From IMG/VR virus record IMGVR_UViG_3300010163_000002, positions 184,906 through 248,905 of that record: DNA of 64,000 bases. The stretch is one strand, 5' to 3'. Position 1 is the stretch's first letter; the number at the start of each line of letters is the position of its first letter. The notes under the pieces were generated by a model that had not been told where the DNA came from, ran no database searches, and worked only from the letters and a program-made list of their open reading frames with translations. This stretch comes from a virus (taxonomy: Duplodnaviria > Caudoviricetes). Positions 5,168-64,000 of this stretch are shown here, one piece after another. The translations under genes and the position numbers were made by a program.

Positions 5168-5476
5168 ATGTATAGATATGCTCAAATTATTCCTGGCAAT
5201 GGAGCTGTAGTAGGAGACAGCCATTTAAGTGGGCCGGTAAATCATCCAAATATGATTCCAATTCCGGAAAATTTTGATCTTACAAATAAGAGATACGTTA
5301 ATGGAGAGTGGCAGGTACACATTCCTCCGGAACCAGAGCCTGTTGAACCTGAACCGACAGAGCAGGATCTTATTAATGCGGAAATACTGTTAAAGCAGGC
5401 TAAGATTATAAGTACTCAGAATGAGACTAACGATACATTGAAACAGATTTTAGCAAATCAGCAGACAAAGGAGTGA
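5168..5476 (+). CDS. Tail fibre assembly/chaperone-like protein (XkdW-like position)
   Basis: 'KRYVNGEW...PEPEP.EPEPTEQD' then a coiled-coil; lies directly before the XkdX-like gene. Confidence 0.55.
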   Translation: MYRYAQIIPGNGAVVGDSHLSGPVNHPNMIPIPENFDLTNKRYVNGEWQVHIPPEPEPVEPEPTEQDLINAEILLKQAKIISTQNETNDTLKQILANQQTKE

Positions 5477-5485
5477 TAATAAGAT

Positions 5486-5629
5486 ATGAGTAAGAAGATA
5501 CTTGATATCATAAAGAATTATTACAAATTAAAGATTTATAAGAATGAAGACGTAGCAGCGTTTGTTAAATCAAACGATATTACTCCAGAAGAATACAAAG
5601 AAATTACTGGAGAAGAATACGTAAAATAA
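5486..5629 (+). CDS. xkdX: XkdX-family small phage protein (47 aa; absent from ORF track)
   Basis: Hand translation MSKKILDIIKNYYKLKIYKNEDVAAFVKSNDITPEEYKEITGEEYVK; 'ITPEEYKEITGEEY' is the XkdX signature; AAGGAG RBS upstream. Confidence 0.85.
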   Translation: MSKKILDIIKNYYKLKIYKNEDVAAFVKSNDITPEEYKEITGEEYVK

Positions 5630-5651
5630 GAGGTAAAGGAGGTTAAGTAGG

Positions 5652-6950
5652 ATGGCATATGGAATTGTAAATGGTCCTGCAGGAGCATCTAGATCATCTG
5701 GTGTTTCTGGATCTGGAATAAGTATTGTGCCATTTCAAACTGGCGGATTAACATATAACAGCAAAGAACAATCCCCTGTATGGAGTAATTATGATACCGA
5801 AAAGCTTACACTTGGTGGAGTGACTAAGAGTACTAATGCCGGTACATATATTGCTACATTCACTCCTAAGGAAGGTTATACATGGATGGACGGAACCACT
5901 GGAGCCAAAGAGGCTCCGTGGACCATCGCTAAAGCACCAGGAAATTTGACAGCAGGAAGAACAGATATGATTTTTGATGTTTTTAATTTATCAGAAACTA
6001 TAAATATTATATGTGATGGGGATGGAGCCATAAGTGTTAAGGTTATAAATGAAGATATTGCTACAGTTGAACTATTTGGTACAGAATTGACAATAACTGC
6101 TATAAAGAAGGGTTATACAGGTATTATTTTAAGATCGATGGAAGACGATAATCATACTGTTTCTGAATTTAAAGTAATACACGTGCATTGCGATATTCCA
6201 AGTAGCGTATTAGAAGAAAATGATATTAAATATATTGTAGATGCGGCAAAATCAGGAACGGCCAAAAATTTCTGGTCTGTGGGCGATACTATTCCTATAC
6301 AGTTAGAGTATGGCTACGATGTTGGTTTAGGCGCACATCCGATTATATATGCGTATATAATTGGTTTTAATCATAATCCAGATATTGAAGGAAATAATAC
6401 AATACATTTTCAATTAGGCAAAACTGAAGATGGTACTGATATAGCCATTACAACTACACACTATGGTAGTGGTAGCAGTTCTAGCTCTGGAACTTTCCAT
6501 ATGATTTTGCAAGGTAGCAATGCAGGGGGGTGGGAAGGAACTAGCTTGAGAAAAAATGATTTAAATAAAACATTTTTTAGCGCATTTCCAACCGAATGGC
6601 AAAATGCTATGAAAAATTGTCCTAAATATACCAATAATATAGGACAAAAATCTTCATCCGTTTCAGTTACCGAAGATAAATTATGGCTATTATCTGAATT
6701 TGAAGTTTTTGGAGAAATAACTAGATCAACTGAACTAGAACAAAATTTCCAAAAACAATATTCATATTATGCTAATGGTAATAGTAAAATAAAATACAGA
6801 AGTAAATCATTAGATACTACTGCTATTTGGTGGTTACGTTCTCCTGCTTTTGCAAGTAGCGGTTTTTGCTGCGTTTTAAATGATGGTTTGCCTGGCGTAG
6901 CACAACAGTACATGGCATATGGATTATCCGCGTGTTTTGCAGTAGGTTAA
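5652..6950 (+). CDS. Receptor-binding protein with Ig-like domains and C-terminal DUF6273/CLec-like (DGR-target-type) domain
   Basis: Starts MAYGIVN; Ig-like 'TYNSKEQSP...NAGTY' segment; C-terminal 'DKLWLLSEFEVFG...WWLRSP...FCCV...YGLSACFAV'. Confidence 0.7.
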   Translation: MAYGIVNGPAGASRSSGVSGSGISIVPFQTGGLTYNSKEQSPVWSNYDTEKLTLGGVTKSTNAGTYIATFTPKEGYTWMDGTTGAKEAPWTIAKAPGNLTAGRTDMIFDVFNLSETINIICDGDGAISVKVINEDIATVELFGTELTITAIKKGYTGIILRSMEDDNHTVSEFKVIHVHCDIPSSVLEENDIKYIVDAAKSGTAKNFWSVGDTIPIQLEYGYDVGLGAHPIIYAYIIGFNHNPDIEGNNTIHFQLGKTEDGTDIAITTTHYGSGSSSSSGTFHMILQGSNAGGWEGTSLRKNDLNKTFFSAFPTEWQNAMKNCPKYTNNIGQKSSSVSVTEDKLWLLSEFEVFGEITRSTELEQNFQKQYSYYANGNSKIKYRSKSLDTTAIWWLRSPAFASSGFCCVLNDGLPGVAQQYMAYGLSACFAVG

Positions 6951-6965
6951 GAGGAGGGATATAAT

Positions 6966-7373
6966 ATGAACTACATAGTTCATCATAGATTTAAAGATAA
7001 AGGGGCTTGCGGTAAATATTTTAATCTTCCGTACGGAACAAAACTTATTACGGTAGGAGAATTTATTGCAACTACAGATAAGAAAATAATCTGTTTTCCA
7101 ACAAGTGAAAACGGTCGTAAATATTTTGCAATCAATGAGGATGGTAAAGGATTAGAGCGCGGGGCTCTGACTTACGCTATTGCGTATCAGCAGAGAAATG
7201 CTGGAAACGGCTTCAGATTTTCAGATGATGAAGCTAAACTAATAAAGGAAAATTATTCTCATTTTCTTAGACAAGATGCTGATGTAATTCTGTTTAACGA
7301 CAGTTTCTTCGAAGCTGATGTTAAAGAATTGCAGGCTTTAGCAGATGCTCTTAATATAAAAATTAAGCAATAA
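6966..7373 (+). CDS. Conserved hypothetical protein of the type found beside DGR target genes in Bacillota phages
   Basis: 'MNYIVHHRFK...FNLPYGT...SENGRKYFAINEDGKGLERG...LFNDSFFEA'; GAGGAGG RBS. Family association is recalled, not searched. Confidence 0.5.
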   Translation: MNYIVHHRFKDKGACGKYFNLPYGTKLITVGEFIATTDKKIICFPTSENGRKYFAINEDGKGLERGALTYAIAYQQRNAGNGFRFSDDEAKLIKENYSHFLRQDADVILFNDSFFEADVKELQALADALNIKIKQ

Positions 7374-7383
7374 TAAAAAAATA

Positions 7384-7456
7384 CAGCCCCATATACATTT
7401 ATTTAAAGCAGCGAGGTTTAATATAAAGCGAAATAATAAATATATATGGGAGGCTG
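7384..7456 (+). promoter_or_regulatory. Imperfect inverted repeat; left arm overlaps a late promoter motif, right arm covers the recombinase RBS
   Basis: CAGCCCCATATACATTTATT (7384-7403) vs AATAAATATATATGGGAGGCTG (7435-7456); TACA-TTTATT-TAA at 7394-7406. Confidence 0.6.
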
Positions 7457-7462
7457 AATTTT

Positions 7463-8482
7463 ATGTACGAAAATTTTAAAGCTGAATTTACAGCAAATTT
7501 GAATAATTTGTGTTTTGATCTTGATAGCAATCAGATAGATAGAGTATTATTATCCATGGATAATACTGCAAAGAATTATGATATTTACGAAAAGCCAGAA
7601 TCAGAGCTGGAAGTAATGGCCAGAACCAATGGTATCCCTAAATTGGTTTACACGTACTTAGCATGTAAAGGTGCAGAAGGTTTATCAAAGGATACTATTT
7701 ACGGTTATAAAATCTTATTGGAGTTGTTCTTCAAAGATGTACCAAAGAATCCAGATCAGGTTAACGCAAATGATATAAGAGTATTCTTATTCAATTACCA
7801 AGCCCGTACTGGAATATCTAATAGAACATTAGATAAGTATAGGGAATATGTAATGAGATTCTTTACATGGTGCCATGAGAATGGTGAAATTCCTATAAAT
7901 ATTTCTCGTCAGGTTAAACCAATTCATTATGAGACACCACAGAGACAGGCGTTAACCCCATATGAATTGGAAGAGCTTAGATTGGCATGCCATTCAAGAA
8001 GAGATAAAGCCATTATAGAGTTTTTATACTCTACAGCATGTCGAGTATCAGAATTAACTAAAGTTAAGTTTACTGATATTGACTGGAATAACAATACTGT
8101 TCATATTATTGGTAAGGGAAGAAAACATCGTATTTCATTCTTAAATCCAAGAGCAAGAATTACTCTTGAACAGTACATCAAATATGAGCGTATGGGAGAT
8201 TCTGAATATGTATTCGTATCTCAGAAAGCCCCATACGATCATCTTTCAAAAGAAGCAATAGAGAAAGTAGTACGAACAATTGCCGTTAAAGCTGAAGGAA
8301 TCCATAAACATATAACTCCTCATGTTTTGAGACATACTACAGCAACGATAGGATTGCATAACGGAATGTCTATAAATGAATTATCAACTCTTCTTGGTCA
8401 TTCTAATATAGAAACTACAATGATTTATGCTAAAACATCTCTTGATGCTGTACAGTCTGCTCATAGTAAATACATTATCTAA
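7463..8482 (+). CDS. Tyrosine recombinase/integrase (XerC/D-like)
   Basis: N-terminal SAM-like core-binding region plus full catalytic set: TACRVSE (R), GKGRK (K), HVLRH, LLGHS, TMIYA (Y). Confidence 0.92.
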   Translation: MYENFKAEFTANLNNLCFDLDSNQIDRVLLSMDNTAKNYDIYEKPESELEVMARTNGIPKLVYTYLACKGAEGLSKDTIYGYKILLELFFKDVPKNPDQVNANDIRVFLFNYQARTGISNRTLDKYREYVMRFFTWCHENGEIPINISRQVKPIHYETPQRQALTPYELEELRLACHSRRDKAIIEFLYSTACRVSELTKVKFTDIDWNNNTVHIIGKGRKHRISFLNPRARITLEQYIKYERMGDSEYVFVSQKAPYDHLSKEAIEKVVRTIAVKAEGIHKHITPHVLRHTTATIGLHNGMSINELSTLLGHSNIETTMIYAKTSLDAVQSAHSKYII

Positions 8483-58704: not shown

Positions 58705-61700
58705 TTAATTTAATTTGGTAGCTTCGTCTATAATAGATAATTGTTCATTAATACTTTCTGGATATTCTCCATTGTATTTTTTATCTATTATATACCTAAC
58801 ACGTTCTATTAATGATGTATATGGGGCATATGTAGAAGATATAAGCATTTTCTCAAGGAAAGTATTTCTTTCACCAATGAAATCTTTCCTTCTGAATAAT
58901 GGATCAAAATCAATTTGATCTTCGCTAAGCATTGGTTTGCCGCTTAATGCGGTATAAAAGAATGTATTATCTACAATCTTTCCATTCTTGTATGCTTCTT
59001 CTATTTTCTTAATATTTCTCTTATCTCCAATGAATTCATACTCTTCAACCAGCATATCTCTTAACTTAGAGTAATCAATTACTTCCAATTGAGCATTTTC
59101 ATTAATAACTAAATACTTATCACAGATAACATCTGGAGAAAATGCGTATGATACTGGAGAAAGCAATGAGGTGTTATTTCTTACCTTAAGAATAAATGGT
59201 TTACTAATACTTCTGATAGGATTGCACGAAGCCATAGACCATTCTTTTACAGATGTTTTAATCTTATTCTTAAGTTTATCTTTATCTATAACTAATGGAT
59301 ATTGAATAATCCATTGCCATGATTCATCCCTATATACATATACTTTGCCTAATGCTATAGGAACTAAATCATTATTTGCCGTAAATACATATCTTTCTAC
59401 ATGTGTATTAGATTCTTCAAAGTCTCTATCATGAATGCTATGACGAATAGAATCATTAAGAGTTTTATAATACAGTTCTTCGTCCGGTGTTCCAGGATCT
59501 GACTTTTCAGATGTATGATACCACGTGATCTGAGCTGTATCAATATAATCCAATACTCCATCTTTTACCACCGGAAGCATATTATTAGACTTCTCTAATA
59601 ATATGGATAGATTATTTGAAGTTATTGTATTGAATATCTTGATTGGGGTGCTTTGATCGAATAATTCCGCATTCATGCCAACTAATCTAGCAGCATCAAT
59701 ATTCTCCTGCTTATCATCAAAGAACATACATCTGCTAGCATCCAGATTAAATTTATCAAGAAATGTTTTATATATGCTAATAGATGGTTTTGTATTATGG
59801 CATTCGAATGAGAATAAACCACCATCAAATTTCTCTAGTAGCGGTTTAAAGAAATTCCACTCTAGCTCCATACTATATTTCTGCCAATTTGACAAATAAT
59901 ACAGTTTATAACCTTTTGATTTCAATGCATCCAATAAATCATCAACATAATCAAACTTATACATCGCCGGAAGATGCGAATCAAATACATCATCTGTATA
60001 TGGTTTAATATGATCAGGCGCTTTAGACTTGAAATATTCTTTAACCACATATAATGGCTCCCATTCTATAGACGGTCTATCCTTATGAAGCCATACATGA
60101 TTATACAAAATATCATAAATCTCTTCAATGTATTCTTCTGGTATTCCTTTGGTTTTTAGAGCGTCTATAAAATTAGATTCTACTAATACAGAACCCATAT
60201 CAAATACTATAGTATCAACAAGCTCTGGTATATCAATTTTACCAACTTTTACTGCAGATTCAACAAGATATTTAGCAACCTGTGTTGATTCTGGAATATC
60301 TATAGAATATTTATTGGCTGCAGATTTAATGCGTTTTGCCAACTCTCTTTTTTTAGATTCTTCTGCATGGCCAAATAGCTTAATTGCAGAATATACGTGC
60401 TTCTTAGAATCTAATGGGTATTTTCTATCTTCTGGAATTCCAAATACAGAATCTGGAAGATCTGATCTCTTAGCTTCTATAAATCCAGCTTCACCCATAT
60501 TGATCCAATTACTACGTTTATTATCTTTGGTAAGTTCCTCTACATGATTAAGAATGTATTCAAGTGTAACAGGCTTGTTATCGAAAAACATGGGATATAC
60601 ATTTATATTTCTTTTACCATCAGTGGTATTATATTCCCTCATATTATGCATATGACCGTGAATATTAAGCCATTCATTATTATAATGCTCCATATTTATT
60701 GGCCTGTGAGTAAATACAATGTTATTCCATATTAATTCCCCATTAAATACAAACTCGAATTTGCATTTTTCATTGTAATCACCTTTATCAATATCATGAT
60801 TACCAAGAACAATAATTTTATGCCCAGGAATTGATGCCATTATTTTATGGGCTTCTTCAGAATCTTCATCAGATGCATATCTGTATGAAATATCTCCAAG
60901 ATACATAAATACGTCATCTTCCTTGATATTCTGTCTACACCACGTAATAATATTCTTGGTATTGACTAGATTACGTTCTTTCTTAAATCTGTTCTTGAAT
61001 AAATGCCAATCAGATGTTAAGAATATTCTTGATGGATCAGTATTGTCAAGAAGTGTTTGAGCGTCTTCATATTTTACAGTATCATCATACCCTCCTGGTA
61101 GTTCTAGATCTGATTCCTTAACATGTGTAATATTTTTATCATTGCTATTATGCTCATTATAAATTTCCAAGGCATATAAAAATGCATCTACAGAATCTCT
61201 GCATTTTTCTTTCAATATTGTTGATTCGTCTTTTGGTCCATGATGGCCAATCAACCATTGTATCTGAGGAGATGCTTTATGATAACCAGCTATGTACTCT
61301 CTATACTCATTATTATCGACAACATCGTTAAAAAATCTAGCATGAAGTGTTTGCTTTACTTGAGTATGGTATTTAGATGGCACAGAATTCAATGGGAATA
61401 TAATATGCTCACTATCATTTTGATATCTATTATCGCCATGTAAATCATATACATCATTTAGATATTTACCAGTAGTATAATATATTTTAATTGGTTCTTT
61501 AGCCTTATATTTTACCGCAAGTATATTTGATAGAGTATTAAAATTTTTTTCATTTGCTTCTATACATTCTGATATAAAATCATTATTTTTGTAAAACCCA
61601 TCAAAATCGGATTTAGATTTTACCATTTTAGCTTCATATTTAGTGCGTGTTTCAGTTAATGCATAAGCATTGAGATTTTTAACCTTACGCTTCCAATTAA

Positions 61701-61869
61701 TAGTATTAATTTTTTCCCTAATTCTATTAATTATTCCGTATTCTGTCATTACAGTAATTACATTAAATTCCTGAATCGGATCTTCATACTCATCTTTCCA
61801 GTTAGTATTATCTTGATCTAATTTCTCTTTCAATGTAACATAAAACAAATCTAATTTTCTAGGTTCCAT
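58705..61869 (-). CDS. Multidomain protein: calcineurin-like metallophosphoesterase, DUF6582-like domain and HAD phosphatase
   Basis: 'TSDWHL','LGDIS','LGNHD','THRP','HGHMH'; 'RSDLPDSVFGIPEDRKYPLD..HV.SAIKLF'; HAD motifs 'VFDMGSVL','LSNW','KP','FFDD'. Confidence 0.85.
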   Translation of the reverse strand: MEPRKLDLFYVTLKEKLDQDNTNWKDEYEDPIQEFNVITVMTEYGIINRIREKINTINWKRKVKNLNAYALTETRTKYEAKMVKSKSDFDGFYKNNDFISECIEANEKNFNTLSNILAVKYKAKEPIKIYYTTGKYLNDVYDLHGDNRYQNDSEHIIFPLNSVPSKYHTQVKQTLHARFFNDVVDNNEYREYIAGYHKASPQIQWLIGHHGPKDESTILKEKCRDSVDAFLYALEIYNEHNSNDKNITHVKESDLELPGGYDDTVKYEDAQTLLDNTDPSRIFLTSDWHLFKNRFKKERNLVNTKNIITWCRQNIKEDDVFMYLGDISYRYASDEDSEEAHKIMASIPGHKIIVLGNHDIDKGDYNEKCKFEFVFNGELIWNNIVFTHRPINMEHYNNEWLNIHGHMHNMREYNTTDGKRNINVYPMFFDNKPVTLEYILNHVEELTKDNKRSNWINMGEAGFIEAKRSDLPDSVFGIPEDRKYPLDSKKHVYSAIKLFGHAEESKKRELAKRIKSAANKYSIDIPESTQVAKYLVESAVKVGKIDIPELVDTIVFDMGSVLVESNFIDALKTKGIPEEYIEEIYDILYNHVWLHKDRPSIEWEPLYVVKEYFKSKAPDHIKPYTDDVFDSHLPAMYKFDYVDDLLDALKSKGYKLYYLSNWQKYSMELEWNFFKPLLEKFDGGLFSFECHNTKPSISIYKTFLDKFNLDASRCMFFDDKQENIDAARLVGMNAELFDQSTPIKIFNTITSNNLSILLEKSNNMLPVVKDGVLDYIDTAQITWYHTSEKSDPGTPDEELYYKTLNDSIRHSIHDRDFEESNTHVERYVFTANNDLVPIALGKVYVYRDESWQWIIQYPLVIDKDKLKNKIKTSVKEWSMASCNPIRSISKPFILKVRNNTSLLSPVSYAFSPDVICDKYLVINENAQLEVIDYSKLRDMLVEEYEFIGDKRNIKKIEEAYKNGKIVDNTFFYTALSGKPMLSEDQIDFDPLFRRKDFIGERNTFLEKMLISSTYAPYTSLIERVRYIIDKKYNGEYPESINEQLSIIDEATKLN

Positions 61870-62382: not shown

Positions 62383-62415
62383 CTTTACTAATTATAAATC
62401 TTACTTGATATTTAA

Positions 62416-62700
62416 TTATGCGTGTATTGATACAACTTCAACCCTAGTTGCACTCTCAAATTCCCAAGCTTCGCCTCTTCCTTTTCTAATATAGGTATTT
62501 TTAATGGCGTATTCAGAGTTTGGTGTTGCAACATACACATATTTATGTGATCCTCTGGCTTTAATACTCTCAATAGTTTCATTAATACTAGCGGGTTGCC
62601 CAAAACACATATTATAATGATATGCTTCATTTATATTGAGAGCGCGTCCCTCTTCTATTTTAGTATAGATTATTAATCCCTGCTTGTACTCTACTGTCAT
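62416..62700 (-). CDS. Hypothetical protein
   Basis: AAGGAGG RBS. Confidence 0.6.
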   Translation of the reverse strand: MTVEYKQGLIIYTKIEEGRALNINEAYHYNMCFGQPASINETIESIKARGSHKYVYVATPNSEYAIKNTYIRKGRGEAWEFESATRVEVVSIHA

Positions 62701-62712
62701 ATTTATTCCTCC

Positions 62713-63183
62713 TTAATGTTTTGGTGGATCAATAATAATTGGCTCTTCATACTTGATAAAACTCTTCCTGCTGAAGAATTCAAAATCTAAATCATATTTA
62801 GCCATTATTAATGATTTAGCCATCTGTTCTAATAGCGCATGTTCTGATACATCAAGGTATCTCGCTTCATACGTATCAGCATACTCAAAATCATATTTAC
62901 AATGAAGCAATTCATGAACAAGTATCTTTTCTGCGCAATAACGCAAAATATAATTATCGCTATAATATTTCTTATCAATAATCCTTATGGCAGAACACTT
63001 ATTAACAATATCCACAGAGTTTTCTCCCATACTATCTGGATTCTTAAACTCTTCCGGCTTGCATATTTTTGCTTCGATAATCCAATCGTCAAGAAACAAT
63101 TTCTTCTGCCACCACTCAAGATATTTCATTAACTCCTTATCTGATTTGAATTCAATTTTGGGCATTTTACTCATTAATCTCAT
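62713..63183 (-). CDS. Small zincin-like (HExxH) protein
   Basis: 'ILVHELLHCK...EH' motif; GGAGG RBS nearby. Confidence 0.6.
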   Translation of the reverse strand: MRLMSKMPKIEFKSDKELMKYLEWWQKKLFLDDWIIEAKICKPEEFKNPDSMGENSVDIVNKCSAIRIIDKKYYSDNYILRYCAEKILVHELLHCKYDFEYADTYEARYLDVSEHALLEQMAKSLIMAKYDLDFEFFSRKSFIKYEEPIIIDPPKH

Positions 63184-63652
63184 CCTCCGTATTTACTATA
63201 AGTTGTATTTTTGACGGTTCTGCCTCGCTGGTTATCATTGATATAAACTCGTCATCATTACTAAATATAGCATGAGTTACATTGGCTAGAAAGCCTATAG
63301 TGTTCCTGGCCATTATATCATAAATAGTAAACTCGATATTACATAATACCCGCCCTGCATAATTACACATTATATATTTATGATTTAAAACTATTTCCTC
63401 TTCAAATATATATGGTAATAACGACATTGCGTACAAATGATGTTCAGTCATACTTGGTTTAATAATGATATAGTCGTCATGTACTTCTATAGCATCTCTT
63501 ACAATATAACCAATTGATGATTTTATATCATAAATAGCATTATTAACATAAGTTTCATCATATGGTACGAAACTATACTTATTTTGTATATACGTCAAAA
63601 TTTCTGGTATATCTTCAGGCTTGTTTATGGATTTATTATTATGCTGGTGCAT
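63167..63652 (-). CDS. Hypothetical protein
   Basis: AAGGAGG RBS; coupled to neighbours. Confidence 0.6.
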   Translation of the reverse strand: MHQHNNKSINKPEDIPEILTYIQNKYSFVPYDETYVNNAIYDIKSSIGYIVRDAIEVHDDYIIIKPSMTEHHLYAMSLLPYIFEEEIVLNHKYIMCNYAGRVLCNIEFTIYDIMARNTIGFLANVTHAIFSNDDEFISMITSEAEPSKIQLIVNTEDEINE

Positions 63653-64000
63653 TATTTATTCCTCCTTGTTTATCTAATACATAGTTTATGATTTCTTCAT
63701 ATGATTTGCCGCGTTTTCTATGATAACTAGTATACGCATCAAATTTACCTAATTTTCTAGATAAATCCGTATCATTTATCCACGTTATGCCCCTATACGT
63801 TTGGCTTATATTTTTAGCGTCCAATACAGCATCTATGATTTCTTCATATGATTCTCTATATTTTCTGTGTGCACGGACATAACCTTTAGCTTTACCTAAT
63901 TTTCTAGATAAATCCGTATCATTTATCCACGTTATGCCCCTATACGTTTGGCTTATATTTTTAGCGTCCAATACAGCATCTATGATTTCTTCATATGATT
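63639..64000 (-). CDS. Tandem-repeat (49-aa unit) putative DNA-binding protein, 5'-truncated by window
   Basis: Unit 'ISQTYRGITWINDTDLSRKLGK-x12-SYEEIIDAVLDAKN'; frame stays open to the window edge. Confidence 0.65.
   Translation of the reverse strand, partial: SYEEIIDAVLDAKNISQTYRGITWINDTDLSRKLGKAKGYVRAHRKYRESYEEIIDAVLDAKNISQTYRGITWINDTDLSRKLGKFDAYTSYHRKRGKSYEEIINYVLDKQGGINNAPA
63687..64000. repeat. 147-bp-period tandem repeat: 110-bp identical blocks separated by 37-bp variable segments
   Basis: 63744-63853 is identical to 63891-64000; a partial third copy ends at 63706; variable segments at 63707-63743 and 63854-63890. Confidence 0.9.

Follow-up and report, generated by a model that had tools for sequence, protein, structure and literature searches.

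The window analysed here is a stretch of 64,000 nucleotides of phage DNA, which forms the last 64 kb of a 248,905-bp IMG/VR record flagged 'direct terminal repeats'. A tandem repeat lies at its 3′ end (63687-64000; period 147, 2.1 copies, 88% matches, score 488 by Tandem Repeats Finder on the window). The repeat is read by a minus-strand frame at 63639-63998, which has its stop at 63639-63641, is still open at the window end and encodes AKGYVRAHRKYRE and FDAYTSYHRKRGK, each placed between TYRGITWINDTDLSRKLGK and SYEEII. The features of this region are given below in window coordinates, and positions marked as contig refer to the whole record.

62713-63183, minus strand: 156-aa ORF whose translation includes a HELLH (HExxH-type) motif; neither Pfam nor PHROG gave it a family.
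63167..63652, minus strand: 161-aa ORF, downstream of the helicase-repeat gene; its ATG (63650-63652) lies in a 14-nt overlap with the end of that gene (63639-63652).
63639..64000, minus strand: final 119 codons and stop codon of the helicase-repeat gene (its 3′ end); the gene continues at contig 1-1787.
63642..63797, minus strand: unit 6, the last unit, with the C-terminal tail KQGGINNAPA (unit HMM match at contig 248702-248577, i-E 3e-22; AF2).
63705..63743, minus strand: variable block of unit 6 (FDAYTSYHRKRGK).
63798..63944, minus strand: unit 5, 49 aa (unit HMM match at contig 248849-248724, i-E 5e-22).
63852..63890, minus strand: variable block of unit 5 (AKGYVRAHRKYRE), turn and second helix, putative recognition helix.
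63945..64000, minus strand: C-terminal part of unit 4 (SYEEIIDAVLDAKNISQT), helix 3 and linker, inside a duplicated stretch of 115 nt.

Because of the 14-nt overlap, the helicase-repeat gene and the 161-aa ORF are probably co-transcribed, and the arrangement of the two reading frames suggests translational coupling. No Pfam or PHROG match was obtained for the 161-aa ORF and the next three ORFs downstream. The neighbours at window 58705-61869 (minus strand) and at L083:3293-4174 and 5384-8011 include a 1054-aa fusion of a phosphoesterase with a HAD hydrolase, along with SLOG (YAcAr) and NADAR domain proteins and a DEAH/HA2-type SF2 helicase of 875 aa. This last helicase matched only HrpA/HrpB-like genes in GenBank phages and is uninformative on lineage. 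Two RNA polymerase beta-like matches (PF00562) are also present in the genome.

The two full units of the window have 127 of 147 bases in common, the flanks (20 and 90 bases) being identical and the 37-base core agreeing at 17 positions. The initial annotation had described a coding array of 110 identical bp with a 37-bp variable insert at a period of 147, and this is exact in both units; the peptides quoted there are read exactly from the minus-strand frame, and the count of about 2.3 visible units is right for the window, the array being resumed at the other end of the contig. The genome-wide (248.9 kb) table of tandem repeats has 13 rows, in which the array takes the top four (scores 403-680) and the next-best repeat scores 72, so the repeat is far beyond chance. 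Of the 15 unit pairs, 14 have their differences clustered in the core (Fisher p 6.5e-4 to 9.5e-11), the exception being the pair u1/u2, the cores of which are identical. Unit 5 follows the order beta-hairpin YRGITW, helix DLSRKLG, variable block, helix SYEEIIDAVLDA and linker, with the AF2 elements E5-7, E10-12, H15-21, H28-34 and H39-50. One contig of run X1 (depth 7), 95-99% like the window, carries two adjacent base changes at 63742-63743 which replace Phe by His as residue 1 of the unit 6 block; past the stop, behind 63655, this contig also carries an insertion of 3 nt.

The last 115 nt of the record (window 63886-64000) are the same as its first 115 nt (contig 1-115), and this overlap contains one constant repeat block and 5 nt of the unit 5 core. 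Since the coding repeat itself supplies the overlap, the 'direct terminal repeats' flag is unreliable, and the overlap marks an assembly break within the gene and no physical genome end. At the contig start, the minus-strand ORF P0001 (595 aa; contig 3-1787) begins at contig 1787 and leaves the record at position 1. When the overlap is removed the two halves fuse in frame to a protein of 677 aa, in which about 375 N-terminal residues are followed by six units starting at residues 384, 430, 479, 528, 577 and 626; one unit has 46 aa, four have 49 aa and the last one ends with a short tail. The reading frame is preserved through all six units, and six is the minimum count for the joined gene. A search with the unit HMM in the six-frame translation of the genome gave no further copies elsewhere. 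It had been suggested from the window that the sequence be extended beyond 64000 to count units and find an effector domain, and that the existence of only two units would speak for a simple duplication; the joined gene has at least six units and not two, and the effector domain is an N-terminal SF2 ATPase.

The simplest reading of the record is a closed circular map that was opened by the assembler inside the helicase-repeat gene, and an array lying inside a gene explains the assembly breaks at the helicase-repeat gene in these phages. Four Logan contigs (depth 3-7) were compared with window 62400-64000 and none of them bridges the array; they are short and come from related strains, and the number and order of units at the junction are seen in the assembly only. 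CheckV reports a completeness of 79% for the record, a value that may be too low because the record ends are an assembly break inside a gene, and the closed circular map may be understated by it.

Judged from its sequence, the N-terminal part is an SF2 ATPase with intact catalytic motifs, of the ResIII / RadD / restriction-motor kind. Pfam assigned ResIII (PF04851, 2.9e-15; 57 bits at a cut-off of 22.5) and DEAD (PF00270, 1.7e-6; 28.3 bits at a cut-off of 26), and the PHROGs match was phrog_16, DNA helicase (7.4e-21). The SF2 motifs GLGKS, DEAHH, ATP and QxxGR do not vary among 15 aligned proteins, the window's own included, with the invariant residues G38 and K39 (motif I), D106, E107, H109 and H110 (motif II), A139, T140 and P141 (motif III) and Q309, G312 and R313 (motif VI). 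The closest solved sequence to the motor is the type I restriction R subunit 3h1t (9.4e-9). With the full-length AF2 model (pLDDT 77.3, pTM 0.54), Foldseek ranked RadD at the top (9.6e-15), followed by LlaBIII, EcoR124I HsdR, Chd1 and XPB. No nuclease domain was found by Pfam in the 595 aa scanned, and no methylase or specificity genes among the neighbours scanned by Pfam and PHROG. An identity as a type I/III/ISP restriction R subunit was rejected, as the sequence and neighbours scanned showed neither the nuclease domain nor the partner genes and the likeness is in the motor only.

The two-unit piece of the window was modelled by AF2 on an alignment of 29 sequences with a mean pLDDT of 90.2, giving two strands and three helices per unit in the order hairpin TYRGITW, helix 1 DLSRKLG, turn, helix 2 (variable) and helix 3 SYEEIIDAVLDA. 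The order of elements proposed beforehand from the letters (hairpin, helix, turn, variable basic helix, helix) agrees with this prediction. The pTM was 0.54 despite a local unit pLDDT of 75-95, so the units may be free in their relative orientation, and the model suggests an array of beads on a string instead of a rigid solenoid.

Weak matches to HTH profiles are found among the 29 short members of the family, namely HTH_24 and KorB (five each), HTH_3 (four), and Sigma70_r4, CI repressor and NUMOD1 (three each); UBA_9 and Ubiq-assoc also stand in the Pfam tally, each in 2 of the 29. Summed scores pass the whole-protein cut-offs in P0039 (Phage_CI_repr 69 bits, I-TevI_DNA-bd 38, NUMOD1 28.6), P0032 (NUMOD1 30.7) and P0078 (HTH_3 37.3, NUMOD1 28.4), the NUMOD1 cut-off being passed in these three solely by adding weak stretches, none of which passes alone. 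The window's own protein has no HTH family at the Pfam cut-off; KorB reaches 27.1 bits in it without any single stretch passing, and NUMOD1 (PF07453) reaches 16.0 bits (E 0.015), under the gathering cut-off of 22.8 bits, on which ground its membership in NUMOD1 was rejected.

The top PDB profile match of the units was the double-HTH protein TraN (E 0.004), with both units aligning to both HTHs. An independent 10-sequence alignment did not reproduce this, giving TraN only E 0.38 and rank 3, and the match is fragile. The beta wing of TraN stands at the place of helix 3, so the equivalence between unit and TraN is limited to an HTH core of about 20 residues. The designed toroid proteins 5byo and 4yxz, which also occurred in the PDB matches, were set aside as unrelated repeat proteins. 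Foldseek with the two-unit model gave 0 matches at E <= 0.001, its top rows being HTH proteins at E 0.36-5 with TraN in the lead; in VIA the best Z was 4.0, at which the IF2 N-domain, UBA, RHH, Par/MerR and HTH folds were tied and none was significant. Look-alikes from the ESM Atlas, NUMOD-like ones among them, scored 0.81-0.84, a range counted only as leads. The HTH-like character claimed in the initial annotation is thus favoured by recurrent weak sequence signals and found no significant structural match by Foldseek and VIA. Taking the sequence signals as the guide, HTH-like DNA binding by the units is likely.

Entropy was computed over 233 full units from 118 family proteins. Unit positions 1-4, 6, 12-13, 16-17, 22-23, 30, 32, 34, 36-38 and 41-42 have low entropy, and 11 positions exceed 3 bits (7, 10, 19-21, 24-26, 28-29 and 39), eight of them within 19-29. 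The variable block has 11-13 residues; it comprises the turn and those residues of helix 2 that are exposed, and it surrounds a conserved Tyr-Val. The variable positions hold 28% K/R/H, 32% S/T/N/Q and 7% D/E; the net charge of the block is positive in 177 of 233 units, with a mean of +1.5 per block and +1.1 per unit, and 230 of the 233 blocks are distinct. The TraN report (PMC6158623) gives R23, N24 and Q28 and E78, H82 and R86 as base-contacting residues. In the alignment these residues fall on unit positions 20, 21 and 25 and on 21, 25 and 29, and all of these unit positions are hypervariable, with an entropy of 3.2-4.0 bits against 0-1.5 at most scaffold positions. As to the earlier proposal that the variable part is the recognition helix, its placement on the turn and helix 2 stands, and the recognition role hangs on the weak HTH matches. 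Hypervariable exposed residues would fit a protein-binding surface or relaxed constraint too.

Within the window's own array the nucleotide identity is 0.90 for the scaffold against 0.51 for the core, and the same codon is used at 0.84 of the identical scaffold residues, in comparison to 0.56-0.59 with the arrays of a relative and 0.50 in the helicase domain. From these identity and codon figures the scaffold has been homogenised or recently duplicated, and the cores are old or selected to differ, so the initial proposal of a homogenised scaffold with a diverging core is supported at the DNA level. Two relatives from IMG/VR (L005 and L006) have three tandem helicase-repeat paralogues each, and the first paralogue, with a non-repeat/motor part that is 99% identical, holds 5 units in one of them but 9 in the other; the unit number, a point proposed for comparison across strains, thus differs between near-identical strains. 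Orthologues with 0.87-0.91 identical non-repeat parts have a residue identity of just 0.15-0.19 in the blocks, and over all orthologue pairs (non-repeat 0.87-0.95) the block identity extends from 0.15-0.19 up to 0.73-0.78. The low values may come partly from the gain and loss of units, by which non-orthologous units are paired. In the 259-kb relative (L006:5549-13409, G001 contig 8-525) the three paralogues have 823, 686 and more than 881 aa; a 140-aa ORF before them has units itself, and the array of the third paralogue is divided between the record ends, as in the genome of the window.

The array evolves in the manner of a coding minisatellite. Unequal crossing-over would alter the number of units, always in whole codon sets (147 or 138 nt), and gene conversion would hold the scaffold near-identical down to its synonymous sites. 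Across the turn and the outer helix face, 11-13 residues differ in nearly every unit and are replaced fast between related phages.

The family comprises about 95 protein clusters with 1-11 units, all from metagenomes or uncultured phage contigs. A word-indexed search with the repeat region gave 29 proteins, and an exhaustive phmmer search of the window piece against 1.84 billion representatives gave 98 clusters at E <= 0.001, of which at least three (P0083, P0095 and P0111) were unrelated repeat proteins and were dropped before unit counting. Arrays of 1-11 units lie within open frames in 118 of 118 retained proteins, drawn from several independent public collections, and several members are located on contigs of 217-270 kb. 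ResIII is present in 15 of 17 long relatives scanned. Other arrangements are three N-terminal units on a dUTPase (P0021), seven-unit proteins without other domain (P0017 and P0018), and five units followed by a C-terminal domain without assignment (P0022); P0003 has one extra unit at the N-terminus. As the unit also occurs on a dUTPase, alone and before another domain, it appears to be a mobile targeting module that is not helicase-specific.

By tblastn the window's protein had no match in 50,697 records of GenBank phages. In 185,579 species genomes the module was absent at the sensitivity used, with 5 loci matching the helicase core only, and in Pfam, at the sensitivity used, the module has no family of its own. 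A single-protein query of IMG/VR returned no relatives; a query with alignment A1 returned 2 true relatives among 78 loci, and a degenerate motif search gave the same two records. Two metagenome searches for relatives found none.

On balance, this protein is probably a jumbo-phage SF2 motor with a tail of at least six HTH-like modules which serves as a DNA-targeting minisatellite array. The gene structure, the unit anatomy, the family, the evolutionary pattern and the ATPase motifs, all observed in the present data, form the basis of this reading. The array would be the DNA-targeting part of the helicase-repeat protein, the second helix of each module would enter a major groove, and the string of modules would anchor the motor, either at a single long composite site or at more than one site. 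Once anchored, the motor would translocate on or unwind the adjacent duplex DNA, like the tethered motors of type I/ISP and Chd1/ISWI. DNA binding, the specificity of each unit and the tethered action of the motor are the steps that we infer. The genome yielded no candidate target site, the genome-wide tandem-repeat search for iterons shows no array besides the helicase-repeat gene, and the cumulative GC skew gave no usable origin signal.

The array might instead be a sequence-indifferent basic DNA tether that raises the affinity or processivity of the motor, with the variable residues as unconstrained surface and with gene conversion halting at the core merely since heterology blocks strand exchange. 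The net positive charge of units and blocks (means of +1.1 and +1.5) agrees with such a tether, conserved K15, K18 and G17 could contact the backbone, the genome showed no target motif or iteron array, and the identical blocks of u1 and u2 mean that diversity is not obligatory. However, frequent conversion without selection should homogenise the cores, yet nearly all blocks are distinct (230/233), and their partial conservation in some orthologues (0.73-0.78) suggests that every block counts; provided that the TraN alignment is right, the positions that vary here are those which contact bases in TraN. We regard the tether as unlikely. A still smaller chance is given to modules that are protein- (or RNA-) binding three-helix domains recruiting the motor, their hypervariability arising from an arms race with a protein target. 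The fast turnover of blocks among close relatives would be expected from this, the VIA rows for UBA/CUE and IF2 N-domain (Z 3.0-4.0) equal those of any DNA-binding fold, and UBA_9 and Ubiq-assoc occur in the Pfam tally (2/29 each). Against it, most of the weak matches are to HTH DNA-binding families, several over whole-protein cut-offs in multi-unit relatives, the blocks are basic and polar with only 7% acidic residues, and the module is fused to DNA/nucleotide enzymes, which are the SF2 motor in 15 of 17 long relatives and the dUTPase in P0021.

An assembly artefact, or a trivial recent duplication without function of its own, is very improbable. Both contig ends lie inside the repeat, and hence the assembler failed to resolve the array; the public contigs of related strains are short with none spanning it, and the third paralogue of the relative is likewise cut by record ends. 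But an artefact can concern no more than how many units stand at the junction and in which order, whereas units in open frames were counted in every retained protein (118/118) from independent public collections, the frame is intact through all units and AF2 folds the units confidently. Writing of the variable blocks by the phage's diversity-generating retroelement (DGR) has practically no probability. The genome does have one, with a reverse transcriptase (PF00078, 4e-15) beside a template/variable pair of 87 bp, all 14 mismatches of which fall on adenines of the template. Its template is unlike the array, all blastn matches of the array elsewhere in the genome are at E >= 0.07, the blocks vary at all four bases over their full length, and the element is about 110 kb from the array with its own target gene. 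An identification of the blocks as a DGR variable region was accordingly rejected, since the template does not match the array and the genome contains no second copy of the array. This DGR is complete-looking and lies outside the window at L090:53-2508 (contig 136945-139400), with the reverse transcriptase ORF at L090:1318-2508, the template at L090:1094-1180 and the variable copy at L090:53-139; the variable copy sits at the 3′ terminus of an open frame of 322 codons, and an ORF of 234 aa separates it from the template.

Under the preferred reading as a DNA-targeting array, a more specific form may be considered, which we offer as a tentative possibility and below even prospects: the protein could be the phage counterpart of the PRDM9/KRAB arrays, with modules that spell a strain-specific address at which the SF2 translocase is parked. 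The hypervariable helix of each module (about 49 aa) would then recognise a few base pairs; the target would be host, rival-element or own DNA, and recombination would rewrite the address in an arms race.

If a relation between unit and sequence exists, programmable DNA recognition would gain a new natural scaffold. If the array reads DNA, it would offer a tractable system for the retargeting of a motor by a phage and for an HTH-based modular code, and if it does not, it is still a new and rapidly evolving phage repeat domain. Motors tethered by a reading module, and module arrays with variable contact residues, are known separately; a literature search did not find the combination of an HTH-like module array with an SF2 ATPase in print. 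In this combination up to eleven HTH-like modules, with a scaffold homogenised at the DNA level and a fast-changing helix, are joined to one SF2 ATPase, and it is confined to uncultured giant phages.

Among known systems, NUMOD1, I-TevI_DNA-bd and the I-HmuI NUMOD-like family (PF07453, PF20987, PF22083) are likewise small strand-helix-turn-helix modules of phages, where they belong to homing endonucleases. They and the present units alike frequently occur in several copies and are attached to a DNA enzyme, of which they form the part that does the targeting. The present units exceed the NUMOD-type modules in length and have a third helix, SYEEIID, that is conserved; whereas NUMOD-type modules are fused to nucleases, these stand on an SF2 motor in up to 11 copies, the scaffold of which is homogenised and one helix hypervariable. 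TraN, the tra operon repressor of the Enterococcus plasmid pIP501 (PDB 6g1t, 4p0y), is built from two winged HTH domains as an internal dimer and shares with the units the core motif L-S-x-x-L-G-K-x-x-x-Y-[VLF]. Unlike them it has a beta wing after the recognition helix, where helix 3 lies here, and two fixed domains without motor or array dynamics.

The nearest neighbours of the motor in sequence and fold are of the tethered SF2 kind, to which the type I (HsdR, EcoR124I) and type ISP (LlaBIII) enzymes and Chd1/ISWI belong. In the type I/ISP restriction motors and in Chd1/ISWI (SANT-SLIDE) the motor is held on DNA by a separate reading part. The present reading part differs from that of these tethered SF2 translocases in being a repeat array on the same polypeptide, and there is no Pfam nuclease or methylase domain.

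TAL effector repeats resemble the array as tandem near-identical coding repeats with a localised variable segment. TALE units have about 34 aa with a code of two residues; each of them reads a single base, and together they build one continuous superhelix, whereas the present array has autonomous domains of 46-49 aa, a variable block of 11-13 residues and linkers that are probably flexible. The TALE-like modular reader of the initial annotation does not hold, the unit being 46-49 aa and not 34, the variable residues 11-13 and not two, with no sign of a rigid solenoid; a TAL effector-like repeat was rejected on unit size and extent of variation, and reading of one base per unit is unsupported.

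The C2H2 zinc-finger arrays of PRDM9 and the KRAB-ZNFs are coding minisatellites with polymorphism in unit number, a concerted scaffold, variable contacts and rapid turnover. The present array is alike in its minisatellite nature, its uniform scaffold, the variation at presumed DNA-contact positions and the fast turnover. It differs in an unrelated fold without zinc ligands, in a unit of 49 aa against 28, and in its occurrence in phages attached to a motor, and its DNA contacts are putative. The closest functional analogy is a polydactyl zinc-finger array such as PRDM9, placed on a motor.
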